The notes under the pieces were generated by a model. That model did no database searches. It was given only the letters and a program-made list of their open reading frames with translations, and was not told the origin of the DNA. Positions 7,376 through 54,906 of a DNA stretch of 64,000 bases are shown one piece after another. Source of the DNA: a virus; IMG/VR virus record IMGVR_UViG_3300005747_000012, positions 1-64,000 of that record; one strand, 5' to 3'. Position numbers and translations under genes: made by a program. How positions within the stretch are numbered: position 1 is the first letter of the stretch; each line of letters begins with the position of its first letter.

Positions 7376-7509
7376 TTGTAGTAATATAATTATAGAAACA
7401 AAGCACAAAGGTAACGATGGATGCTAACGAAATGGTTGTAAATATAATATTAACTATTCTTTGCCTAACGGCTTTTGGATTATTGTGGGCTTTTTGGAGT
7501 GACATATGA

Positions 7510-7581
7510 AATCCACATACCTAACACGAAATTCACATACATATAATAGAAATCCATATAGGGGGGCTAGAAATCCACATA
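7510..7581. repeat. Four phased AATCCACATA-like direct repeats
   Basis: Copies start at 7510, 7530, 7551 and 7572 (20-21 bp period). Confidence 0.75.
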
Positions 7582-8550
7582 CACCTATCCTCATAGACGC
7601 TTTTAACGCTCCTATAACGGTAGGCATTGAATATCACCCAGAATGGAATGAAATACAAGAGAAGGCAAATATGCAAGTCTCAGCGTGTATAAATGAGGTA
7701 ATCTTTAACATAAGACAGGATGATAATGTACCTGTGGAATAAGGCAAATAACTTTTGCCAATCCACACACCTGCTAAGTCATTAAAAATGTGTGTCAAAA
7801 AGGTATAACCTACCGAAATCACATATGTCATAACAATTAACAAAGGATATTGTGTTCTAGTATTGCCGTAAAATTGTGTCAAAATCTCGTTTTTTGACCC
7901 ACGCACACCACGACACCGACTCAAGACAGAGCCTCCCAACCACGGTTCTAAATTTTTTTTATCTGACGAACCCTGCCGACATTATAATATCACACACTTA
8001 TCGACACACCCCTGCAAAAGCCGTGCCAGAACAGCCCTGCCGAAAATGGCATCGGAATTGTATATGCAAAGACCGTGCCAAAACACTTGGCATGAATCTT
8101 GCATAAAAATGTAAGTTATTGATTTTGCGTAAAAATATATAACCTCCTGTTTTTATTGATGCGCCCAGAATCTTTGGCACTTTCTAATAGTTACCATGAT
8201 TTTAAATTTCAGTCAAGCCATTTTTTTCATATGCAAAAGTCGTGCCAAAAAATAGTTGTTGACAAAATTATTTTTTATCTATATACTTCCGAAAATAAAT
8301 TATTTTTTTTGTTGACAATGTTGGTTTTGTCATGTATACTTCGCCCGTGCGCCCATGCAAGAAGTGTGCCAAAAATCGGCCATTTTTTTTTGCCTCAACT
8401 TACAGTATACAGAAAGAAAGTGCTCCCGTCAACCCCTTTTTTTAATTAAAAATAAAATTAATTCTTTAAAATTTTTATTGAATTAATAGTTGACACAACT
8501 TCCCACTTGCGTTAATATGTAGATGGGACTAAAAAACAGGAGGATAACCC

Positions 8551-8961
8551 ATGAATATTTCACAACAAGTAGTAATTTTGAGTGCTGAAAATACTAAACT
8601 CACACCGGAACAAAACTGTCAGCGCACAAAAATTTTAAAGCATTGTCTGGAGGATTGTAACCTGCTTTTCGGAGAATCTTTAGGGATGTATAAGGGAGAA
8701 CCCGAAACATCATTTGTAGTCATTATCAATAATTCTCATGACTTGCAAGCACTGAAGGACTTTGCTTTTAAAAATTTTAATCAGGAATCAATTCTGTACC
8801 AAGATGCTAATCAGGAAGCACATCTTATTTTTAACAATGGTGCAGAGGAACGACTCGGACGACTAGAAGAAGTAACCGAAGAAGAAGCTCGTAAACAAGA
8901 TGCGTTTACATTGTTTAGTGGGCGTTATTACGTTACAAAACAAAGGCAACTAGGACATTAA
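8551..8961 (+). CDS. S-adenosylmethionine lyase (T3 SAMase-like), anti-restriction protein
   Basis: ILSAEN..L..EQN..R, G.YKGEPETSF, FNQESILY, ERLG.LEEV and DAFT..GRYYV follow the T3 gp0.3 SAMase motif order; first gene of the early module. Confidence 0.8.
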   Translation: MNISQQVVILSAENTKLTPEQNCQRTKILKHCLEDCNLLFGESLGMYKGEPETSFVVIINNSHDLQALKDFAFKNFNQESILYQDANQEAHLIFNNGAEERLGRLEEVTEEEARKQDAFTLFSGRYYVTKQRQLGH

Positions 8962-9015
8962 TGCAAGATTCATGCCAAGTTTTCTCATTTCCTTGGCTTG
9001 AATTATTCCTCCATG

Positions 9016-9043
9016 AAAGCAGGGTGAAAACCCTGCTTTTTTT
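9016..9043 (+). terminator. Rho-independent terminator
   Basis: AAAGCAGGGT-GAAA-ACCCTGCTTT followed by a T-run. Confidence 0.85.
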
Positions 9044-9224
9044 ATATTATAGTATACACGACAAAAATAAACTAGTCAAGGGGTTGACAAGAAAGTTTTT
9101 ATCATGTATACTTCTCCAAAAACTGGCACGATTCTTGCAAGAAAAAAAGTGCGAAATAATCAAAATAGTGCTTGTAATTGCAAGCACATTGCTTTACAAT
9201 GAATACACTAGCAAGGAGGAAACA

Positions 9225-9776
9225 ATGCTAATACAAGAAATTAAATTAAACAACGGTGAAAAACTAGAAATTTACCACGACGAAGGTTGTTTTGACCCTA
9301 GAAAGGAATTTGATAATGTGACTGAAATGATTTTCTTTCACAATAGAATGAACGTGGGCGACAACCATGACATTGACCCTGACAATTATTCTAGCTTTGC
9401 AGGCATGATGAATGAAAATGTAAAAGACGGTGACTTGGCAATGCCAGTATTCTGTTACTCTAAACGATGTTTTGAGTTGTCTTTAACTCCTTTTTCATGC
9501 CCGTGGGATAGTGGGACTCTTGGCTTTATTGTAGTCAGGAAAGCTACGATTGACTATGAATTCGATGGAGATAGAGAAAAAGCATTGAGAAATCTAAAGG
9601 CAGAGCTAAACACTTACAACGACTATCTAAACGGACGCACTTATGGCGGCATTATGTACGATGCTGAAGGACATGAGATTGACGCTTGTTGGGGCTTCTA
9701 TGGCAATGACTTTGAAGAGAATGGTATCTATGACAATTTTGGTATAAACAAAAATAATATAGTGGAGGTAGCATGA
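9225..9776 (+). CDS. Conserved acidic phage protein (PWDSG motif)
   Basis: Start reassigned from 8961 to 9225 (AGGAGG RBS, own promoter); CPWDSG.LGFI, YNDYLNG.TYG and CWGFYG motifs. Confidence 0.75.
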   Translation: MLIQEIKLNNGEKLEIYHDEGCFDPRKEFDNVTEMIFFHNRMNVGDNHDIDPDNYSSFAGMMNENVKDGDLAMPVFCYSKRCFELSLTPFSCPWDSGTLGFIVVRKATIDYEFDGDREKALRNLKAELNTYNDYLNGRTYGGIMYDAEGHEIDACWGFYGNDFEENGIYDNFGINKNNIVEVA

Positions 9777-9939
9777 AATAGGCACGGTGCAAAAACCGTG
9801 CCAAATCCACATACCTTATTCCACATAGTATACACGAATAATTCCACATACACAAGAGGAAAAATAAATTAAAAAAACTTGTTGACATATTGGGTTAATT
9901 GATTTAATATAATATTAACAAAGCATTAAGGAGGAAACA

Positions 9940-10257
9940 ATGCGAAACACACAAAACCTAGCAGACTTCGGCTATAGAGAAAGAGAAGAAGCGGCAAAGC
10001 TATTGTCATCACTTGGAACGTCAAAGGATAAAACTAAATATTTTGGCGACAGAGGTGTAGCGGTGGAATTTAACCCATATAGCACTTACGTTTTTTTAGT
10101 TGATGAGGATTACAATGTTGCTATGCTAAATGTTGACGATGAACTAGAGGACTTTCACACTTGCCCTAATTGTGGCGGTGAGGGACTAGCCTCAGACTTT
10201 AGGGAAGACAACACGGACGAATGTTGTCATGAATATGCAGACGAATTAAATATTTAG
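9940..10257 (+). CDS. Hypothetical early protein with CxxC
   Basis: Promoter, AGGAGG RBS and downstream hairpin. Confidence 0.75.
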   Translation: MRNTQNLADFGYREREEAAKLLSSLGTSKDKTKYFGDRGVAVEFNPYSTYVFLVDEDYNVAMLNVDDELEDFHTCPNCGGEGLASDFREDNTDECCHEYADELNI

Positions 10258-10622
10258 GGGAGTTGTTAACCCCTAAACTCCTTGGTTAGTATTGGTTGGG
10301 TTGGCACGGATATTGCATCTGTGCCAACTTTTTCTGGCATCTAAGAGTTACCATAAATCACACACTTTGTCAACATAAAAAATAAATTATTTTTTTATTT
10401 GACAGTGTAAGTTTTGTCATGTATACTCGGGCCTTTCCCCTGCAAAAACTGTGCCAACATTTTCTCAGCATCACCTTATAGTATATAGTACAAAACAAAC
10501 ATACACAAGAAAAATCGTAAAAAAATCTTTTTTTATTTTTACTCTCTTTTCAAGCACTTAGGGATTTGACAATATTCTCAAAAAATGCAATAATGACTTA
10601 ACACTTAACAAGGAGAAAACAA

Positions 10623-10838
10623 ATGAACACAAACGAAAAATTGGAAATCTTCAGAAAACTTTACTGCCTTGGTCTTTCAGACATTGAAAAGGTGTTTGAG
10701 GGTTCAGGGTTGGAGGAACACCTCTCTAGCACTTACATGAGAAGTCGTGACGAACATGGCTTTTATGGCAACTTTCACTTTCTCTTTCAGCTTGACTTAG
10801 AAAACGCTGAAAAACTCCTGAAGAGGATAGGGCTGTAA
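10623..10838 (+). CDS. Hypothetical early protein
   Basis: Promoter, AAGGAG RBS and terminator hairpin. Confidence 0.75.
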   Translation: MNTNEKLEIFRKLYCLGLSDIEKVFEGSGLEEHLSSTYMRSRDEHGFYGNFHFLFQLDLENAEKLLKRIGL

Positions 10839-11015
10839 AGCCCTACCTCAAAAACCATGCCAAGAAATGTCTCCCTCTTGGCATGGTTTTAACAGCATAT
10901 AAGTATACATTAAAAAACATAAAAGCACAATCCCAAAAATAAATTAATTATTTTCTTGCGTTATTAGTTGAGATATGCAATAATTTTATATAATCCAATC
11001 AAACGGAGGAAAAAA

Positions 11016-11201
11016 ATGCAAAGATTAAGAATAAAAATTGAAAAAGAAAACGGTGAATTTTTAGATGAAATTATGGTTTATGATGAAACTACTTTGACAG
11101 AAGATGAAGCCGAAAATTTAGACTTTGACCCTGATGCTGTTGAAATTTCAGAAGTCGATTACTGGATTAAAAAAGCGTTTAAAATAATGGAGGAACTTTA
11201 A
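11016..11201 (+). CDS. Highly acidic small early protein (possible DNA mimic)
   Basis: Start reassigned to 11016 (GGAGG RBS); strongly D/E-rich. Confidence 0.7.
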   Translation: MQRLRIKIEKENGEFLDEIMVYDETTLTEDEAENLDFDPDAVEISEVDYWIKKAFKIMEEL

Positions 11202-11202
11202 A

Positions 11203-11427
11203 ATGCACTTAAAACTACACTATGACGGTACTAAACTGTATTCTTATGAATGGTCTAGGGTGATACCTCTTTATAGATTGCATTATTATGTCAGAGAAGA
11301 GGGATATACTTTTGAAGTGGTAAACAAAAAAGGTAAAGACTTAACTAAAAAATATTTATGCAAACTTGCCTCAATGCAATTAGAAAATTATTCTTCAGAT
11401 GATCTTTATTTTATGATAAAAAAATAA
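11203..11427 (+). CDS. Hypothetical early protein
   Basis: GGAGG RBS; KLYSY...YVREEG.TFEVVNKKGKDLT faintly recalls PhaR N-terminal DNA-binding domains. Confidence 0.6.
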   Translation: MHLKLHYDGTKLYSYEWSRVIPLYRLHYYVREEGYTFEVVNKKGKDLTKKYLCKLASMQLENYSSDDLYFMIKK

Positions 11428-11573
11428 GGGGAATTTTTCCCTACATTTTAGTATACAGCATAAAACACTAAAGCACAAGAAGAAAAAAAAGTTTTTTTAT
11501 ATGTCGATTTTTCTTGTGTTTTATTGCGTTATGCTTTAAAATAGTATTAACAGATTAACCAACGGAGGATAAA

Positions 11574-11819
11574 ATGAGACAAATGAAAAACAAATCTTAC
11601 GGAACTGTTGTAAACGTGAAAGAGCTGGCCATCACTAGAAATTTTTGGGAATACTTCATTACAGATGAGGCTTTCACCGATGATATCGTGTGTGCGGTAG
11701 TTTCAGGCTTTGAATGTGAGATGGGCGATATCAGCCTCTCAGAAATTAAGCCTCACGTTATCACAAGGACAAGCGACCTAATGGAAGCTATGCCTGCACC
11801 CGGATGGGAATGGGTGTAA
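11574..11819 (+). CDS. DUF2958-like protein
   Basis: YFITD...VVSGFECEMGDISLSEI pattern; GGAGG RBS. Confidence 0.65.
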   Translation: MRQMKNKSYGTVVNVKELAITRNFWEYFITDEAFTDDIVCAVVSGFECEMGDISLSEIKPHVITRTSDLMEAMPAPGWEWV

Positions 11820-11959
11820 CCCAAGGGCCGAAAGGCCCTATCTTATAGTATACACAAAGAAAAACACGCCGTCAACCATTTTATTAATTTATTTTTTGTT
11901 GTTGACAGAATTTTATCTTTCGTATTATAATATCATTAACACTAACCATAGGAGGAAAT

Positions 11960-12619
11960 ATGGAAAAGATATTAGGTCAAGAACAATACGGTGCTATCAT
12001 TATGGCAGAGATGAAAGGCAATAAAATAGAATCTATCTCATCTGGCTATATTGAACACTCAGACAACACTTATGACGGTAACACTTACTTATCGAAAAGC
12101 TCATGGGGCGGTACTTACACCGACTTTCAAGGGAACAAGTTTGAAAGAGGCATGGAACTCCCTGAAGACTTCACGCCTGCCTTCCAAGACGAGGGAGCAG
12201 AACAGATTATGCTCGAAGAAGACTATTATCACGCTGAAGGTCATCACTGTGAAAAGTGCGGTACTTTTCACGACACAGAACAATATTATGACGTATCATT
12301 CGTAATTACAGAACACGGTGGTTTCTACTGTAAAACTTGTGTGCCTGCTGAAGAGCTTCTAGTTGAGGTCACTGAAAGTGAGGATATTTTTAGAAGTAAA
12401 GACATGGTGGGAACTGAAGTCCCAGAGAACTTTGAAGAGGTCGAAACACTTTTCTGTGATTCATCGGGGTTTGGCAGCACAACAGAAAGAGCATTGACCA
12501 AAGAGCAAGCAATAAGACGCACGGAAGAGCTTATAGACGAGCATGGAACGCTTTATTCAGGACTGACAGGGATAGGTCAGTTTCAAGTGTATGTGACACT
12601 TTACAGGGAAGTAGAGTAA
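11960..12619 (+). CDS. Acidic early protein with two CxxC-type Zn pairs
   Basis: HCEKC and YCKTC; promoter, RBS and terminator at 12626-12649. Confidence 0.75.
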   Translation: MEKILGQEQYGAIIMAEMKGNKIESISSGYIEHSDNTYDGNTYLSKSSWGGTYTDFQGNKFERGMELPEDFTPAFQDEGAEQIMLEEDYYHAEGHHCEKCGTFHDTEQYYDVSFVITEHGGFYCKTCVPAEELLVEVTESEDIFRSKDMVGTEVPENFEEVETLFCDSSGFGSTTERALTKEQAIRRTEELIDEHGTLYSGLTGIGQFQVYVTLYREVE

Positions 12620-12625
12620 AACAAT

Positions 12626-12649
12626 AGGGGCGAAAGCCCCTTTTTTTTT
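12626..12649 (+). terminator. Rho-independent terminator
   Basis: AGGGGC-GAAA-GCCCCT followed by a long T-run. Confidence 0.9.
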
Positions 12650-12776
12650 ATTGACAATAAAAAATCCACATGATATACTCACCAAGTCCACATACATTGG
12701 CACGAACTTTGCATACAAAATAGTTGTTGACAATATAATCCACATATTATATTATAATATTAACAACGGAGGATAT

Positions 12777-13055
12777 ATGATTTATTTAATGCAAATCATG
12801 AATATGTTAAACAAAAAAGAAAGGACGGACTTAATCCACATACTAGAAGACTTATCTTTTGAACTAGAAGAAATGGGTTGGAACAGCGATCCAGAAGGAT
12901 TAATTAGCGATATTTTATTTAACCATTTTGGGTTTGAAATGGAAGACCCTAAACAATTGACTTGGTTGACTGATTGGGTGTTAGAAAAACAGAACTCTCC
13001 TCAATCTTTTAAAGCATTACTCACAACAGTCAACCTACAAAAAGGAGAGGCGTAA
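12777..13055 (+). CDS. Hypothetical early protein
   Basis: Start reassigned to 12777 (GGAGG RBS); the longer ORF runs through promoters. Confidence 0.7.
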   Translation: MIYLMQIMNMLNKKERTDLIHILEDLSFELEEMGWNSDPEGLISDILFNHFGFEMEDPKQLTWLTDWVLEKQNSPQSFKALLTTVNLQKGEA

Positions 13056-13131
13056 GCCTCTTTTTTTATTTTTTTTAAAAAAACTGTGCTATACTCATGG
13101 GCAAAAAGAAAGGGGCGATTGCCCCCTTGGT

Positions 13132-13344
13132 TTAGCGGTATTCGGCGTTGAGTACAACTCTATCGCCTACTAGGGTGAACACAGCAGGTCGCTGATTGGT
13201 TGGTTGGGAAAACTCAGCAAGAATTTTATAGGTTTGTGACCTAGACTTGCCAATGGCTTGCACCACTTCTTTTTTGTGAAGTATCTGATGCGGTGTATTT
13301 CTAAGTAATACAATAATGTTCAAAATAGTATCAGTTTTTGTCAT
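13132..13344 (-). CDS. Small winged-HTH DNA-binding protein
   Basis: ILNIIVLL...KKEVVQAIGKSRSQTYKILAEF; own TTGACT promoter near 13385, AGGAGG RBS and hairpin at 13110-13127. Confidence 0.7.
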   Translation of the reverse strand: MTKTDTILNIIVLLRNTPHQILHKKEVVQAIGKSRSQTYKILAEFSQPTNQRPAVFTLVGDRVVLNAEYR

Positions 13345-13566
13345 GTTACCTCCTAATAAAATTATCTCATATCTTGAGAATTAAGTCAACAACAATCGAC
13401 ACACAAAAAAACTTTTTTTTAATATTGTGCTTTCTATTTTTGTATGATATACTCGCAGAGTGTGGTAAAAACTTGGCATGAATCTTGCATAAAAAAGTTT
13501 AAATAAGGAATTGACAGTTATCGTCAAAAATGCAATAATGGGGTAACACTAACAAACGAGGATAAT

Positions 13567-13758
13567 GTGTCAATTTTTACAAATAAACAAAATTTTGCCG
13601 ATAGACCCGAAATTATGAGAATTTTAGAGGCATTAGAAGTAGCTCATGCTAAACAAGATGAATTGAGCGCATCTATCCTATTAACTAGACTTTCTCAATA
13701 TAATATCAAATTAGAGGCAGAAAGTTCTTGTAATAAAGTTGAAAATGCACTACAATAA
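13567..13758 (+). CDS. Hypothetical early protein
   Basis: Promoter at 13511, GAGG RBS, GTG start. Confidence 0.65.
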   Translation: MSIFTNKQNFADRPEIMRILEALEVAHAKQDELSASILLTRLSQYNIKLEAESSCNKVENALQ

Positions 13759-13774
13759 TAAAAACGGAGGAAAA

Positions 13775-13984
13775 ATGGAAAAGAGAGAAAAGCTAGAAAT
13801 TAACAACCAAACTGAAGTATTTTTTGAGGCAGTATTTGAACGTGATGGTTATGCTGATAAAATTGTCATTGAGGACAGCATTGGTAAGCTACAAATTGCG
13901 GTCAATGTGTGGACAAAATGCGGTCAATGGAAACTAAAATCAGCCGATAAGGTTGAGAGAACAATAGCTAGATTAATAGCTTAA
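13775..13984 (+). CDS. Hypothetical early protein
   Basis: GGAGG RBS; start reassigned to 13775. Confidence 0.65.
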   Translation: MEKREKLEINNQTEVFFEAVFERDGYADKIVIEDSIGKLQIAVNVWTKCGQWKLKSADKVERTIARLIA

Positions 13985-13995
13985 ATGGAGGAAAT

Positions 13996-14172
13996 ATGGA
14001 CGTATACGAAAAAAATGGATATGATAACAGAAAACATTATCTCAATTGTTTAGCCGAGGATTTTGGAATAGAAAAATCAGTGGTTTACGAAATGGCATCT
14101 ATTCTAGGTCAAAATGAGGATTTTGACGGGCTAGTAACGACAGTTGAGGATTATGTAGACGGTTATCTATAA
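13996..14172 (+). CDS. 58-aa acidic conserved phage protein (not in the ORF track)
   Basis: MDVYEKNGYDNRKHYLNCLAEDFGIEKSVVYEMASILGQNEDFDGLVTTVEDYVDGYL; GGAGG RBS. Confidence 0.75.
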   Translation: MDVYEKNGYDNRKHYLNCLAEDFGIEKSVVYEMASILGQNEDFDGLVTTVEDYVDGYL

Positions 14173-14344
14173 TCCTTGGTTAGTGTGTTGCAAGAACCGT
14201 GCCAACTTGGTGCGGTTCTTCTTTTTGAGAGAAGTATACGCCACAAATCCATATAGCACAACCATTATTTTAATTTATTTTTTGTTGTTGACAGCTATCG
14301 CCAAAAATGCAATAATGACTTAACACTAACATATTGGAGGAAAT

Positions 14345-14689
14345 ATGAATTTAGTAAACAGACCATCAGTAGGTGAAACAAACGGACTCTTAGACGGTCA
14401 CAAATACCACAGTGAGTTCACAGCAAATATACAGCGTCAAGTACCTTGGACAGCCGAGGGACTAAAAATAACACGCCTGAGACTACTCTCAGACCACGGC
14501 TTTCCATTTTGGGAGGTTAGTTATTGTCATGGCGTATTAAATGGCGAACCTGTAGAGGTTATTTTGCCTTTTAGTGAGTTACCAAAGAAAAATAGAAATA
14601 GAGCTATCGTAAAATATGCCATTAAAGATGGCATATTTGCGAAGGGGCTAGGGATTCTCTCCCCCCTAGTCCAAAGTACCCTCTGTTAG
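14345..14689 (+). CDS. Hypothetical early protein
   Basis: Promoter at 14288, GGAGG RBS and terminator at 14697-14733. Confidence 0.75.
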   Translation: MNLVNRPSVGETNGLLDGHKYHSEFTANIQRQVPWTAEGLKITRLRLLSDHGFPFWEVSYCHGVLNGEPVEVILPFSELPKKNRNRAIVKYAIKDGIFAKGLGILSPLVQSTLC

Positions 14690-14787
14690 TGTGTTCGAGG
14701 GGCAGTAAAAAAAATGCTGCCCCTCATTTTTTTATTTGACACGACAGCCGACCCGTGCAATAATGGTATTAACGAAACGGAGGAAAT

Positions 14788-14940
14788 ATGGAAACACTAA
14801 TCGAAAAAATCAACGAACTAGAAATTAAAGCAAAGGTCTACTCTGACAACTATGGCCCTAATTCTGACGAGGTAAAGGCAATTGACCAACAAATTGCTAA
14901 AATTAACCTAGAAATACTTGACATCATGTGTCCCGAATAA
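14788..14940 (+). CDS. 50-aa coiled-coil early protein (not in the ORF track)
   Basis: METLIEKINELEIKAKVY...; promoter at 14736, GGAGG RBS and terminator. Confidence 0.7.
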   Translation: METLIEKINELEIKAKVYSDNYGPNSDEVKAIDQQIAKINLEILDIMCPE

Positions 14941-15138
14941 GGGACACTTTTTTTCTTGTGTTTTTTGCTTTTGTCGTGTATACTCTCCCAATGTGGAGAG
15001 TTGACAGGGGAGCGTAAGCTCTTGTTTTAAGTAGTATATCACACAAAACGTGCAAGCACCAGAGGAAAAATAAAATAAAAAAACCTATTGACAGCGTTGC
15101 CACTATATGAGACAGTGGTAACAGCTAATGGAGGAAAT

Positions 15139-15291
15139 ATGAATAAAATGGAAAAGCGATTTTTAATTAATTTGATCAACCACGAAATAGGAAAATTAAG
15201 ACTAAAAATACCATATTGCGACAAGCTTAAACCAATACAAGAGCGTTTGTATTGGCTTGAAAAAGTTAAGAGAAAAATTAAAAAGGTGTAA
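15139..15291 (+). CDS. Small basic early protein
   Basis: Start reassigned to 15139 (GGAGG RBS). Confidence 0.6.
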   Translation: MNKMEKRFLINLINHEIGKLRLKIPYCDKLKPIQERLYWLEKVKRKIKKV

Positions 15292-15293
15292 CA

Positions 15294-15515
15294 ATGAGTA
15301 ATATAGCAATTGTGCAAACAGAAAGATTTTACTATGAATTAAAAACAAGAGATCAGGCTTGGGATTATGGTATAGATTTCAAAGATGAATATGATCAAAA
15401 ATATAATATGATTGATATTCCTGCGGATATAATTAACCAATATTTTAAGAACAAAAGAGAGTTCGACAAGTTACAAGAATATCTTAGTCAAATGTTTGAT
15501 AAACTTCCTAGATAA
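15294..15515 (+). CDS. Hypothetical early protein
   Basis: Follows the previous gene directly; AAGGT RBS. Confidence 0.65.
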   Translation: MSNIAIVQTERFYYELKTRDQAWDYGIDFKDEYDQKYNMIDIPADIINQYFKNKREFDKLQEYLSQMFDKLPR

Positions 15516-15543
15516 TGTTACTATATAAACTAATGGAGGAAAT

Positions 15544-15843
15544 ATGAAGACATTTTTAGTTGTAGCACAATATGAAGAAAATTACGGGGCACATTCTTGG
15601 GGTGGTCAAGGCGAATGCCCTCAGTATTGGAAGATGAAGGGCAGTGATGATTTTATCGTGACCGCCAAGGACAAATATGTTGCGGTTGAAATGGTCAAGC
15701 CGCACCTGTATGACAGCGATTATGCCAAGTCTTATATCGTTCACATGGAAGAGGTAGGGTCAGGCTACCAGACAGAATTTGAACGCTCACAGCTTAAATA
15801 TGAGGGCGAGATAACCTATCCAGCAAAACGACTTGGGGTGTAA
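15544..15843 (+). CDS. Conserved phage protein (ENYGAH..G.GECPQYWK.KG family)
   Basis: Recognisable motif QYEENYGAHSWGGQGECPQYWKMKG; GGAGG RBS. Confidence 0.75.
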   Translation: MKTFLVVAQYEENYGAHSWGGQGECPQYWKMKGSDDFIVTAKDKYVAVEMVKPHLYDSDYAKSYIVHMEEVGSGYQTEFERSQLKYEGEITYPAKRLGV

Positions 15844-16056
15844 AAACCCCTTGTGCTTTTTGCTTTTGTCGTGTATACTACTCAACCCTGACACAATATC
15901 AGATAGTTGGCACAACTATCTTCCCTAGTATACACCAAAAACCTTACGCCTTAAAGAAAATAATGAAAAAACTTTTTTAACTAAAGTGCATTATTTTGTT
16001 GACTCAAAATTCGAGATGCTTTATAATTTCATTAACACTAACACGGAGATAAAAAA

Positions 16057-16347
16057 ATGCTAACAGTAAACGGACACACTTTGAACATTGAGAGACATTT
16101 TTACATGGACGAACTTGAAGAGACTTACTTCGAGGTTAAAAAACCTTGTGGCAACTATTGTCACATGGATTGGTCAGGTTGGGGCGCACAGCCGACTTCT
16201 GAGGACTTTGCACTATGGATTGAACTTGGATATCCAGACAGGCATCACGCTGCCTTAGAAGCTAAAAGAGAGGCTACAGGCATCAAGGTTTACTCGCCGC
16301 TTGATAGCAAAGATTTACAAACAATTAAAGAGTACGAGGGGCGATAA
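16057..16347 (+). CDS. Hypothetical early protein
   Basis: Promoter at 15999, GGAG RBS and terminator hairpin. Confidence 0.7.
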   Translation: MLTVNGHTLNIERHFYMDELEETYFEVKKPCGNYCHMDWSGWGAQPTSEDFALWIELGYPDRHHAALEAKREATGIKVYSPLDSKDLQTIKEYEGR

Positions 16348-16454
16348 GCCCCTGATATCAGGGCAAAAACGAAGATAGTTTAAAATAACTATTGTAATCC
16401 ACTGGCAGTGTGTTATTATAATATTACAGAAACACACAAACAAAGGGAAACAAA

Positions 16455-16631
16455 ATGAATGAGAGAACAGAAAAATTAATCGCTGAAAACGTACAAATGG
16501 AAGTCGCTTTAAAAATTATCAACAACTATCTTAATACCGATGCAAGCGATAAAATTAAACTCAAGCTCGTAACAAAGGAACTTGAGGAGATTCAAGAAAA
16601 GATAGGAAGAAAGTTTTTAGAGAGGGCTTAA
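16455..16631 (+). CDS. 58-aa helical early protein (not in the ORF track)
   Basis: MNERTEKLIAENVQMEV...; upstream TATAAT promoter; stop codon lies in a hairpin loop. Confidence 0.65.
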   Translation: MNERTEKLIAENVQMEVALKIINNYLNTDASDKIKLKLVTKELEEIQEKIGRKFLERA

Positions 16632-17122
16632 CAGCCCCCTCTAAGGAGGTTAATAACATGGTACAACTATTTTTTAAACTTTTAATTATTCTTTACATGG
16701 TATCAATGATTCAGGAGGGTTTTCTATGAGCAAGTCAACTGCTATCTTTTTATTTACGATCGGCTATTTAATTTATATTGGTTACGTTGCCACGCAAGTA
16801 TCTGAAAGGATTAATAAAATAAAAACAATAACCATAACTAATAAACAATAACAATTATATATAATACTAATATATATAATTATATATAGGCGTAGGAACT
16901 GGCTCACCGCCCCACCGTTCAGCACCACTGGACATCGTAGCAAAAAAATACCGCCAACAATTCTTGTCAGTTCCTATGCCTCATATTGTTGGCACTCACT
17001 CCTGCCACAAAAAGTTGGCACTTTTTCTACTGACCATTCTTTAGACAGGTGTATAATTTTTTGACAGTATTTTTTTTAATTATGTTGTTGACAGTGCAGA
17101 GTTCTATCTATATACTGTAGGA

Positions 17123-17169
17123 TAAAGCCAAAACCAAAAGCCAAAACCAAAAGCCAAAACCAAAAGCCA
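17123..17169. repeat. Tandem 13-bp repeat AAAAGCCAAAACC (about 3.5 copies)
   Basis: Read directly from the sequence. Confidence 0.9.
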
Positions 17170-17349
17170 TATGGCATATATATTGCATATACAATACTGA
17201 TACCACACAGGGGGGAGGGGTATGCAAGAAACATGCCAAAACCGGGGTTTAGGAGTCCCTGATTTGAGATTGGATACCTATGCCCGAAATACAGCGAGGA
17301 TCATTTTTAACTTTTTCAAATACCCCCCACCCCTTTTTTTAAGTAGTTA

Positions 17350-17420
17350 GGGTCCCATATATAGGGGGTGGGTCCCTTTTTTATTTTTTAGGGTCCCATA
17401 TTGGGTCCCATACGGGTCCC
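17350..17420. repeat. Five GGGTCCC quasi-palindromes
   Basis: Copies at 17350, 17370, 17391, 17403 and 17414. Confidence 0.9.
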
Positions 17421-17432
17421 TTTTAGAATATT

Positions 17433-19427
17433 TTAGAAATCTATATTAGGAATTCCGGGATACAACCTACATCCCCAATATGTCATTTTATTGTGGTCAA
17501 AGTGCTTGTCATTCTTGAACTTCCAGATACACGCATCCTCAAAGCTAATACCAGAGCTAACCCCTAACTTCACCGGTTTAGTCTTTTTACCTTCGGTCTC
17601 ATTGGCACAATAGCCCTCAGCCCAAATCTCATACTCCCTGATCACATCAGCTTTTCTCAGGTGATTCTCTATAACAATTTGAGCACAGTGCAACAAATAC
17701 TCTTTCTGTTTCTTTTCCAATTTAGCCGGTGTCATAGCCCGGACAAGCTCAGATGCGATTAGCTTAATGTTCATCAAACGCCCCCAATTCTATGAGACTC
17801 TTCACTGTCATACGTTTTGCCTGTACAAGCTCCAAAATCTCTTTAGATTGTTTTTTGTCTGACATAGTGTCTAATTTCCAATTTATTGTACCCAAATCTT
17901 TTTCAAGTGTTTGAATTAACTCATCTTTATCCATTATAACCTCCAAAAATCAACAGCCATGAGAGTATCACACACAGCCCAATTAGTAAATCCATTGTCT
18001 CATCACTTTTCATATTTCACCCCTATCTTTCTTAATCCTTTCTACATAGCTTCTAGCTGACTCTGGATAAACCCATTCCTCACCGTCAGGTGTAACCATG
18101 CGAATTGTGATTGGCTTCTTTGGATTCAGTGCTTCGTGCATGAGCCTGTCATATTCGTCTTTGAAAGGTGTGCCGGGGCCAGAGTGTGGCTTACAAGTCC
18201 AACCCTTCATATGGTGTGTCGGAAGGTCGTGGCTTGTCATCACACGACTGTTTTTCACCCTGTCCCATAACTTGTCGTATTCTGTGTCGGAAATTATTTT
18301 GTACATCGCTGCCTACTTTATGCCGATAACCCAATGGTATAAGCTGTCATGATCACATTCAAAGTCACATTCATGAACTGTGCCGCAGTTTTTACACGTT
18401 TCATCATCACCAAAGCCTTCAGTGTACTCATTTTCTACTCCACAATGAAAGCAATCGTATGTATCCATTATCCATCCAGTTCTTCGTCATAGTCAAACAT
18501 ATTATTTTCAACAGCCTTCATCATATCTTTTTCACTGTTGTAACTACCCATCCATTTAGCCAATGCATGATATAACCTCTCAGCATCCTCTGGACCCATG
18601 TTAATTTTTGTCAGAAAATCACCTTTTTTTATGCTTAAGTAGCTGTTATCATGTGTTGCTTGCTCATAATAGCTAAAAATATCAGCAGTTGTCTGGTATT
18701 CCCACCAACATTCAACATCTACCATATCAAGATAGTAATCTTGCTTTGCTTTTCTTCTATAGCTTTTCCAAGTAGCCACCCTGTCTCCTTTTTTTAGACA
18801 TTTAGCGTATTTTTGTCAAAAAATTCACCCCAAAAAGTCTTGTTTCTTTTATATATCCAATTCTTCATTGTATTTTTTCTTATACAGATATTTGTACAGT
18901 TTTTTGCTTTCAAATACAATCTCAAGATGTCCCATTCTTAAGAAAATTAGTGGAATTTCGCCATCTGGACGATATGGATTGGTTTCGCAAAAATCTAGAT
19001 ACATTTCTCTTATCTTATACAAGGAAAAATGTACGTTAAAGATAGAGATATCAAAAAAAGGTATTGCAAAATCCATATTTTCCATTTTTTTTATAGATTC
19101 TTTTATTTTTTCGTCTAAATTCATGTATTTACCTTGTTTTTAACGAAAAATTCGCCTCAAAAAGTCTTTTAGATAATATTATTCTTTTATTTTACCATTT
19201 TTAACAGCTTTAACGTAGTCATTTAGAGTCAAACCATGATTTCCTGCTCTAATTTCAAGAATTCCTTGATGAGTTTTTGGGGAATATGTTGCTTTTAAAC
19301 TTTTGTGCTCTTTAAAATTCAAGAATCCAGCCTTTTCCAACTCTTCACAAATAGCATTAGCTGGCCAATTTTGGTGTTTTTCTAGAACATTTGTAATAAT
19401 TTCAATTGCTTTTTGTTTAATTTTCAT
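17433..19427 (-). CDS. Cluster of small hypothetical genes (17433-17777, 17764-17946, 18010-18306, 18468-18779, 18849-19124, 19179-19427)
   Basis: Co-directional, closely packed ORFs, several with RBS; no family recognised. Confidence 0.6.
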
Positions 19428-54824: not shown

Positions 54825-54906
54825 GCTTGTATGGTGGAATTGGTAGACACAGAGGGCTTCAACCCCTTGGGCTAAGGCCGTGCGGGTTCGAGTCCTGCTG
54901 CAAGCA
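54825..54906 (+). tRNA. tRNA with Leu-type body and UCA anticodon (putative opal suppressor)
   Basis: Acceptor GCTTGTA/TGCAAGC plus A73; D arm GTGGAATTGGTAGACAC; anticodon arm GAGGG-CTTCAAC-CCCTT; long variable arm; T arm GCGGG-TTCGAGT-CCTGC; no encoded CCA. Confidence 0.85.

Follow-up and report, generated by a model that had tools for sequence, protein, structure and literature searches.

Why would a phage place many perfect copies of a bacterial sigma54 promoter element between its early genes? A preliminary description of a large uncultured water phage (IMG/VR record IMGVR_UViG_3300005747_000012) noted fifteen sigma54 (-24/-12) boxes in its early module and proposed that they titrate host sigma54 RNA polymerase, insulate strong early promoters or serve as a handle for DNA entry. 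We analysed the 64,000-nt stretch in which they were seen (the window, bases 1-64000 of the 129,267-bp record), together with the rest of the record and other viral and bacterial sequences.

Sigma54-type boxes are confined to the early module

We found exactly 15 matches to TGGCAYRNNNNTTGCA (TGGCAYR-N4-TTGCA) in the window, 6 on the + strand and 9 on the - strand, at the coordinates and strands given in the preliminary description. In 100 dinucleotide-preserving shuffles the mean number of matches was 0.06 and the maximum 1, and none of the 100 reached 15. The whole record also has 15 matches, all located between 8013 and 17238. Relaxing the pattern to TGGCA-N6-TTGC adds only two TTGCT-type hits (68214- and 122648+), both inside long ORFs. 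No site has exactly one mismatch, and the 18 sites with two mismatches equal the chance level (33 in all against 18.45 expected). Near-matches had been noted at 8047, in the 10847-10895 region and at 15908. Those at 8047, 10847 and 10879 are real, while 15908 is only a -24 half-site (TTGGCAC) in a hairpin.

Based on our gene map, all 15 boxes lie outside ORFs that have a Shine-Dalgarno site. As previously noted, the early genes have their own sigma70-type promoters, and we also found terminators (32 terminator-like sites against 6.1 expected). Nine of the 15 boxes point against the genes. No sigma54 activator (PF00158) and no sigma54 DNA-binding domain (PF04552) was found in the window or in the rest of the record, which is estimated to be 81% complete. 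No GAFTGA-like motif occurs in any of the six frames.

The consensus core is conserved in relatives

Next, we compared the boxes with those of the close relatives L155-L158. We found 0 real changes in 260 core positions, against 14 of 156 in spacer and Y/R positions (about 9 independent events) and 71 of 2181 in flanks. The two core changes counted are a gap-placement artefact, and Fisher's test of core against spacer gives p = 4e-5. The boxes are therefore under selection for the consensus core. The relatives' own cassettes bring their own boxes in the same grammar, although one box in L155/L157 lies inside a reading frame. The boxes are not copies of a longer repeat: the repeat family is only 20-22 nt long. 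The individual boxes and the features around them are listed in Table 1.

Table 1. Sigma54-type boxes and associated features of the early module, in window coordinates. Predicted start positions are inferred from standard spacings.
Position	Strand	Feature	Context and conservation
8013..8028	-	sigma54-type box TGGCACGGCTTTTGCA	in the 800-bp gene-free leader of the early module; conserved in L156/L157
8047..8062	+	decayed box (2 mismatches here; perfect TGGCATAAGAATTGCA in relatives L156/L157)	convergent with the 8065 box; their -12 ends are 2 bp apart
8065..8080	-	sigma54-type box	the only change in relatives is in the spacer
8088..8103	+	sigma54-type box TGGCATGAATCTTGCA	same 16-mer as at 8962 and 13474
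8232..8247	-	sigma54-type box	11 nt upstream of the -35 of sigma70 promoter 8259-8287
8356..8371	-	sigma54-type box	between convergent TATACT promoters 8312-8340(+) and 8404-8432(-); co-directional with the latter (gap 32 nt); its predicted start (~8346) coincides with that of the + promoter (~8347)
8962..8977	-	sigma54-type box	starts on the base after the stop codon of the SAM-lyase-family gene 8551-8961 and points back into it; terminator 9015-9040 follows
9124..9139	+	sigma54-type box	11 nt after the -10 of promoter 9084-9112 (TTGACA-17-TATACT), in the leader of gene 9225-9776
9788..9803	-	sigma54-type box	11 nt after the stop of gene 9225-9776; forms the hairpin GGCACGGT/ACCGTGCC; co-directional TTGTGT-17-TATACT promoter 23 nt upstream on the - strand (9827-9855); identical in L155-L158
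10302..10317	+	sigma54-type box	built into the terminator hairpin after gene 9940-10257 (TTGGCACGGAT...ATCTGTGCCAA + T run)
10441..10456	-	sigma54-type box	between promoter 10399-10427(+) and a co-directional - strand TTGTGT-17-TATACT promoter (10480-10508, gap 23 nt)
10847..10894	.	terminator hairpin of two inverted -24 half-sites (TTGGCATGG)	no -12 element
12698..12713	+	sigma54-type box	between promoter 12651-12679 (TATACT, gap 18 nt) and the gene-proximal promoter 12727-12755 of gene 12777-13055; two spacer changes in L156/L158 with the core intact
13474..13489	+	sigma54-type box	between promoter 13425-13453 (TTGTGC-17-TATACT, gap 20 nt) and promoter 13511-13539 of gene 13567-13758
14189..14204	-	sigma54-type box	in the stem of terminator 14192-14220 after gene 13996-14172; co-directional - strand TTGTGC-17-TATACT promoter 28 nt upstream (14233-14261)
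17172..17187	+	sigma54-type box	in the convergent strand-switch gap, 55 nt after promoter 17088-17116 and directly after four 13-nt repeats
17223..17238	-	sigma54-type box	convergent with 17172; relatives carry TGGCACGGTTTTTGCA here (three changes, none in the two core pentamers)
8259..17116	.	18 TATACT-class sigma70-type promoters	17-bp spacer; -35 TTGACA, TTGACG/T, TTGTGY or, once, TTTAAG; 9 on each strand
8551..8961	+	first gene of the module, S-adenosylmethionine lyase family (PF23780, 79.9 bits)	marks the module as an early anti-restriction/takeover module (inference)

Boxes are coupled to sigma70-type promoters and hairpins

Interestingly, 7 of the 15 boxes lie 11-32 nt downstream of a co-directional TATACT-class promoter, compared to a random expectation of 0.70, and 0 of 20,000 randomisations reached 7. 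Boxes 8356 and 10441 also face a + strand promoter of this class with overlapping predicted start sites. Each of the 18 TATACT promoters is followed within about 75 nt by a box, a hairpin or another such promoter, so that those without a box run into a hairpin or another such promoter. Moreover, three or four boxes, among them 9788, 10302 and 14189, are built into gene-end hairpins. Nonetheless, six boxes (8013, 8065, 8088, 8232, 10302 and 17223) have no TATACT promoter 11-32 nt upstream.

Tandem boxes recur in other viral contigs

Such arrays are not unique to this phage. At least 120 viral contigs with a GC content of 33-65% carry tandem boxes, while the tandem-pair pattern was found in 0 of 401 bacterial genomes. 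In 476 distinct sites from 122 viral loci, the positions left free by the search pattern follow what appears to be the extended sigma54 consensus: Y before TGG 0.86, R after TGGCAYG 0.82 and T after TTGCA 0.59. A published consensus is TGGCAC-N5-7-TTGCT (PMC12316311).

In 48 box-bearing records, 20 of which are at least 90% complete, none encodes PF00158 and none encodes PF04552. None of the 48 has a homolog of the only reverse-strand HTH-like gene of the module, and 2 have a homolog of one early protein, of 92 aa. No other early protein of the window matches the 122 loci, apart from one weak hit. Accordingly, a host factor is more likely than a phage factor to recognise the boxes.

Like the boxes studied here, those of other phages occur without an activator, in gene-free gaps and in both orientations. 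Most of them form dense arrays of 2-14 boxes within 100-400 bp, either at preferred spacings or as convergent pairs, compared to the one or two boxes per cassette border found here. Same-orientation spacings cluster at 25-29 and 35-39 bp (41 and 21 family-level counts), with 0 at 21-24 and 6 at 30-34. Two contigs, L097 (141 kb) and L061 (147 kb), show the same dispersed layout in modules of small genes. Based on approximate ORF maps, 8 of 9 boxes in L097 and 10 of 14 in L061 oppose the genes. In same-strand gene contexts of other phages, 15 arrays are anti-directional and 6 co-directional, although the ORF calls are crude. The boxes are not a fixed trait of the lineage, as the nearest cultured relative, Myxococcus phage Mx1, has none.

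Possible roles of the boxes

We favour, with a probability of roughly 0.4, the reading that the boxes are docking sites for the host sigma54 RNA polymerase (or for sigma54 itself), kept by selection in the gene-free gaps of the early, takeover-type module of a large Mx1-like phage. They would act in cis on a class of strong sigma70 promoters that fire in both directions and serve no gene of their own, with a box lying in the first 5-40 transcribed bases of such a promoter or at a gene end, often inside the terminator stem. Binding is inferred, and the host, and with it the presence of rpoN, is unknown. A mechanistic precedent exists: E. coli sigma54 polymerase is reported to repress overlapping sigma70 promoters by binding competition, with an inert closed complex as the proposed repressor, and all such repressive sites have the consensus C at -12 (Schaefer et al. 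2015, PMC4551910). All 15 boxes have this C. Convergent arrangements are also mentioned in that work, which concerns scattered single sites in a bacterial chromosome, while here a phage would have built the arrangement repeatedly (7-9 times) into its early module. Nevertheless, a protein roadblock seems redundant where intrinsic terminators are cheap and already abundant, and nothing in the literature we consulted establishes that a sigma54 closed complex stops an elongating polymerase.

Alternatively, though less likely, the boxes may be working sigma54 promoters fired by a host activator, or by an unrecognised phage activator acting from solution. The six + boxes would add input to early genes, and the nine - boxes would make antisense RNA or collide with early transcription, shutting the early genes off on schedule. 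The match to the consensus is perfect, and boxes 9124, 12698 and 13474 sit at promoter distance in front of genes and could simply be extra promoters. The - boxes at 8962, 9788 and 14189 would start exactly at the 3′ ends of early genes. In other phages, 41 of 119 arrays lie in divergent gaps, where promoters are expected. However, no activator was found in this record, estimated to be 81% complete, or in the 48 others, 20 of which are at least 90% complete. We saw no shared upstream activator site; sigma70 promoters lie upstream of the boxes at variable distance. Furthermore, convergent boxes in other phages commonly have their -12 ends 1-5 bp apart, so each would transcribe through the other's site, and the bias towards anti-directional arrays also speaks against this reading.

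The leading idea of the preliminary description, a trans-acting decoy that soaks up sigma54 or its holoenzyme to damp host regulons, is doubtful in its pure form; such a decoy might also free core polymerase for the phage's sigma70 promoters. High-affinity consensus sites in both orientations without an activator would suit a decoy, as would dense arrays in many phages. The preferred spacings, about 2.5 and 3.5 helical turns, would put bulky neighbours on opposite faces. Yet a sponge needs no particular position, while here the boxes are tied to TATACT promoters, gene ends and terminator stems and are spread over 9 kb. The orientation bias in this phage, L097 and L061 also argues for a cis role, and no host regulon that the phage would need to silence is identified, because the host is unknown.

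Equally improbable is that the motif is the operator of another DNA-binding protein and only resembles the sigma54 site. The boxes do sit where operators sit, and the reverse-strand HTH-like gene (70 aa) has a weak AlpA-type HTH match (E 0.0074, below the cut-off). Nonetheless, the motif is asymmetric and bipartite with an exact spacer, unlike dimeric HTH operators, its free positions follow what appears to be the extended sigma54 consensus, and it is arrayed in contigs that, apart from the few matches given above, share no protein with this module. Finally, a role in DNA handling (an origin-like or packaging site, or an anchor for the incoming DNA end) is the least likely, since the boxes are dispersed, contig ends, where the arrays of several other contigs lie (others being in long gene-free gaps), are not known physical ends, and nothing we tested speaks for it, even though the gap at 16860-17430 holds two boxes together with tandem 13-nt repeats and GGGTCCC repeats.

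Relation to known systems

The boxes have the same sequence and the same exact GG-N10-GC spacing as bacterial sigma54 promoters, and the flanking preferences that these appear to have, but they lack an activator gene and a recognisable upstream activator site, and many lie in the initial transcribed region of sigma70 promoters or in terminator stems. The preliminary claim that no phage system of this kind is described needs qualifying. Pseudomonas phage YuA, an unrelated siphovirus without a sigma54 of its own, is reported to depend on host sigma54 and has a single sigma54-like promoter (P015) with a mapped start (Ceyssens et al. 2008, cited in PMC5053324 and PMC10914365). No array, antisense orientation or coupling to sigma70 promoters is described there, and we found no paper on arrays in our literature searches. 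After Mx1, the portal of our phage is most similar to those of SPO1-like phages, at about 25% identity. With its run of small genes, each with a strong sigma70 promoter and a terminator, the module may resemble the early host-takeover modules of large virulent phages such as SPO1 and T5, of which sigma54 boxes and gene-less, two-way TATACT promoters do not appear to be features.

Sigma54 polymerase forms a stable closed complex that cannot start without an ATPase activator, and none was found in the record, which is estimated to be 81% complete. We therefore infer that the bound enzyme works as a protein block, which would compete with sigma70 polymerase for the TATACT promoters and stop polymerases at cassette borders. 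In this way it would act as a host-supplied repressor or insulator of early transcription, and the block would lapse when replicated phage DNA outnumbers the few sigma54 molecules, or when some activator fires the sites.

Fifteen sigma54-type boxes confined to one early module

The pattern TGGCAYRNNNNTTGCA has exactly 15 matches in the window, 6 on the + strand and 9 on the - strand, which confirms the positions and strands listed in the preliminary description. Dinucleotide-preserving shuffles give a mean of 0.06 matches and never more than 1. The window is the first 64 kb of a 129,267-bp virus record estimated to be 81% complete, and in the whole record the count is still 15. With up to two mismatches allowed, the 18 extra hits equal the chance level (33 in all against 18.45 expected) and no site has exactly one mismatch. 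Sites are therefore either perfect or absent.

The boxes fall in a run of about 22 small + strand genes which is dense in sigma70-type promoters (52 promoter-like sites against 33.8 expected) and in intrinsic terminators (32 terminator-like sites against 6.1 expected). The first gene of the run belongs to the S-adenosylmethionine lyase family, which fits an early anti-restriction or takeover module. All boxes lie outside genes that have a ribosome-binding site. Six of the 15 boxes point with the genes, 3 of these sitting before a gene start, and 9 point against the genes. No Rfam family was found in 7500-17600.

Features of the early module and other features noted in the virus record and its relatives. 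Positions are those of the window unless stated otherwise; single numbers are the positions by which sites are named. L017 and L018 are stretches of the same virus record, and L155, L157 and L158 are metagenome contigs related to it.
Position	Strand	Feature	Remarks
8013-17238	6 on +, 9 on -	15 perfect sigma54-type boxes	Whole extent of the boxes in the record
8047		Near-match to the box	Perfect box in the relatives L156/L157
8259-17116	9 on each strand	18 promoters of the TATACT class	-35 TTGACA, TTGACG/T, TTGTGY or, once, TTTAAG; 17 bp; TATACT
8356, 10441		Boxes downstream of a co-directional TATACT promoter	Also face a + strand TATACT promoter
9124		Box downstream of a co-directional TATACT promoter	
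9788, 14189		Boxes downstream of a co-directional TATACT promoter	Built into hairpins at gene ends
12698, 13474		Boxes downstream of a co-directional TATACT promoter	Sandwiched between a TATACT promoter and the gene-proximal promoter
10302		Box	Built into a hairpin at a gene end
8962		Box	Begins on the base after a stop codon
14984, 15879, 11847, 11450, 10902		TATACT promoters without a box running into a hairpin	Two of these hairpins contain -24 half-sites
8551-8961	+	First gene of the module	S-adenosylmethionine lyase family (79.9 bits)
12777-13055	+	Acidic 92-aa early protein	Directly behind the promoter-box-promoter sandwich
13132-13344	-	70-aa gene, the only reverse-strand gene inside the early module	Own promoter and terminator; weak AlpA-type HTH match (E 0.0074, below the cut-off)
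17124-17169 and 17340-17430		Four tandem copies of a 13-nt unit (AAAGCCAAAACCA) and several GGGTCCC repeats	The tandem copies abut box 17172; the GGGTCCC repeats lie in the same convergent strand-switch gap
7761, 9804, 9842, 12665, 12686, 12741		TCCACA(T) motif	Recurs next to boxes and promoters; also in the relative L158
53853-54824		ClpX/ClpB-like AAA+ ORF (AAA_2)	
54825-54906	+	tRNA with anticodon UCA (ARAGORN; labelled tRNA-SeC)	Directly after the AAA+ ORF; may be an opal suppressor
L017:7888-10497 (record 91888-94497) and L018:3687-5678 (record 107687-109678)	-	A ResIII/Helicase_C protein and an AAA protein	Each with a Hint plus LAGLIDADG homing-endonuclease insert (inteins)
L018:15150-17309 (record 119150-121309)	-	719-aa protein	N-terminal minimal CRISPR polymerase (mCpol) domain (69 bits) and DUF5661
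L157 7318-7333 = L155 2896-2911		Perfect box inside a reading frame of about 158 aa (codons ...D G T I L A P...)	In a cassette replacing window 11577-11841; the only intragenic box seen in this lineage

A large phage related to Mx1

The record encodes a DnaE-type Pol III alpha, ribonucleotide reductase, a portal and intein-bearing helicases. The portal (44-47% identity) and Pol III alpha (33%) are closest to those of Myxococcus phage Mx1, and the next-best portals are SPO1-like at about 25%. This kinship suggests, but does not show, a host outside the Firmicutes. We could not identify the host: the closest ribonucleotide reductases among genome contigs are three MAG contigs of discordant labels at 51% identity, which is uninformative, and a search of a protein atlas gave only viral portal clusters. 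Sequence words of the module occur in at least 15 DNA runs labelled freshwater, estuary, sediment or marine.

The boxes are short, stand-alone and under selection

Next, we asked whether the boxes are kept in relatives. Megablast of the module against cultured phages found nothing and single-protein scans of viral contigs found no relatives, but five metagenome contigs carry the same module, with a 219-aa protein 98% or 85% identical to that of the window. Four of them hold 8, 13, 18 and 12 boxes, and the fifth, a 1.2-kb fragment, holds none. Aligned to the boxes of the window, the ten core positions (TGGCA, TTGCA) show no real change in 260 positions. The two changes counted are a gap-placement artefact next to an A run, and the box is perfect in both relatives. 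By comparison, the spacer and Y/R positions changed in 14 of 156 positions (about nine independent events) and the flanks in 71 of 2181 (Fisher's test of core against spacer, p = 4e-5). Where relatives carry different gene cassettes, those cassettes bring their own boxes in the same layout.

Similarity among the boxes extends over only 20-22 nt, and spacers and flanks differ, so they are not copies of a longer element. We reject both chance and duplication as the origin of the boxes.

The sites resemble sigma54 promoters but no activator is found

In 15 of 15 boxes, the GG and GC dinucleotides are exactly 10 nt apart, as in sigma54 (RpoN) -24/-12 promoters (TGGCAC-N5-TTGCW). A recent survey gives the consensus as TGGCAC-N5-7-TTGCT (PMC12316311). 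The match extends beyond the search pattern: in 476 distinct sites collected from 122 viral loci, the positions left free by the pattern appear to follow the extended sigma54 consensus, with a pyrimidine before TGG (0.86), a purine after TGGCAYG (0.82), a T-rich 3' spacer and a T after TTGCA (0.59). The window's own sites behave alike.

By contrast, the 129-kb record has no sigma54 DNA-binding domain (PF04552) and no sigma54-activator AAA+ domain (PF00158) over the cut-off. The only faint hit (10.3 bits) is the P-loop of the ClpX/ClpB-like ATPase. No GAFTGA-like motif occurs in any frame, and no shared element was seen upstream of the boxes. Nonetheless, an activator supplied by the host cannot be excluded.

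Boxes are coupled to a class of predicted sigma70 promoters

The module holds 18 promoters of a special class, most of which serve no gene and run into a sigma54 box or a hairpin within about 75 nt. Seven of the 15 boxes lie 11-32 nt downstream of a co-directional promoter of this class. Placing 15 boxes at random in the 3,738 intergenic positions gives 0.70 on average and never 7 in 20,000 trials. Two more boxes follow such promoters at 55 and 73 nt. For two of the seven, which also face a + strand promoter, the sigma70 and sigma54 start sites predicted from the usual spacings fall within 1-3 nt of each other on opposite strands, so the two enzymes could not sit there together. In these seven cases the sigma54 site probably overlaps the footprint of a sigma70 promoter, although both the activity of these promoters and their start sites are predicted from spacing rules. 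Interestingly, promoters of this class without a box run into a hairpin, and three boxes are themselves built into hairpins at gene ends. A box and a hairpin thus occupy the same slot.

Box arrays recur in many viral contigs

An exact 18-mer from the window occurs in 14 viral contigs, three of which have clusters of boxes, and the same boxes occur as arrays in at least 120 viral contigs. These have GC from 0.33 to 0.65 and 2-14 boxes each. In 48 of them that are at least 25 kb long, all 48 have the pattern and none has the reversed-pattern control. Of these 48 records, 20 of which are at least 90% complete, 0 encode a sigma54 activator, 0 encode a sigma54 DNA-binding domain and 0 have a homolog of the weakly HTH-like 70-aa gene. 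Two have a homolog of the 92-aa protein (39-40% identity; contigs G011 and G025), about 0.8 kb from their arrays. No other early protein of the window matches the 122 loci, apart from one weak hit. The tandem pattern occurs in 0 of 401 genomes of one sigma54-bearing bacterial phylum.

After grouping 126 arrays into 63 sequence families, same-orientation spacings (start to start) are absent at 21-24 bp, common at 25-29 bp (41 family-level counts), rare at 30-34 bp (6) and common again at 35-39 bp (21). The preferred spacings correspond to about 2.5 and 3.5 helical turns. Convergent pairs mostly have their -12 ends 1-5 bp apart. Two large contigs, L097 and L061, show the dispersed style of the window in modules of small genes, and by approximate ORF maps 8 of 9 and 10 of 14 of their boxes, respectively, oppose the genes. 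Within the Mx1-like lineage, a complete 182-kb genome has 5 boxes and Mx1 itself has none.

Possible roles of the boxes

The motif is asymmetric and bipartite, appears to match sigma54 in its free positions and is shared by phages that have no early protein of the module in common apart from the few matches described above. It is far more likely to be read by the universal host factor, sigma54 or its holoenzyme, than by a phage protein. An operator of a phage-encoded repressor would be expected to show dyad symmetry and a cognate DNA-binding gene travelling with the sites, but the box is asymmetric and no such gene was found among the early proteins and records searched.

We tentatively favour a cis-acting block (probability about 0.4), although binding by the polymerase is inferred and the effect of the bound enzyme has not been shown. 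The boxes sit within the footprint or initial transcribed region of predicted strong sigma70 promoters and at gene ends, are interchangeable with hairpins and mostly oppose the genes. All 15 have the consensus C at -12, which work in E. coli links with repression of overlapping sigma70 promoters by binding competition (PMC4551910).

The main alternative is that the boxes are true enhancer-dependent promoters giving sense and antisense RNA. This has a precedent in phage YuA (PMC5053324, PMC10914365) but lacks an activator and fits abutting convergent boxes poorly, and we consider it doubtful. A pure decoy, the titration role raised in the preliminary description, is less likely still and does not explain the positional coupling. 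Roles in DNA handling, for which we have no test, seem the least probable.

A more speculative and, in our view, unlikely extension is that phages of many lineages borrow the inert sigma54 polymerase of the host as a ready-made DNA-bound block. In this phage, each bound enzyme would silence a two-way sigma70 promoter or seal a cassette border while there is one genome per cell. Because a cell holds few sigma54 molecules, replication would titrate the blocks away, and the box set would then work as a genome-copy-number timer that switches the early module off or over. That would be a regulatory principle not described for any virus.

The use of host sigma54 by a phage and the repression of sigma70 promoters by sigma54 polymerase have both been reported, whereas we found no description of sigma54-box arrays in phages in a literature search that did not extend to the supplementary tables of PMC4551910 and PMC12316311, which might list sites or classes relevant to repression. 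Sigma54 polymerase is the one bacterial polymerase form that binds its sites tightly and then does nothing until an ATPase fires it. A phage in which no such ATPase is found, yet which keeps 15 perfect sites under selection, placed against its own strongest predicted promoters and at its gene ends, would on our reading get something from the bound but silent enzyme. If that is repression, insulation or timing, it would be a new way for viruses to use a host protein, as well as a natural example of sigma54 acting as a repressor and a compact protein-programmable stop element for synthetic biology. Given that the arrays recur in viral contigs across a wide GC range and were not found in the bacterial genomes searched, the answer would apply widely.
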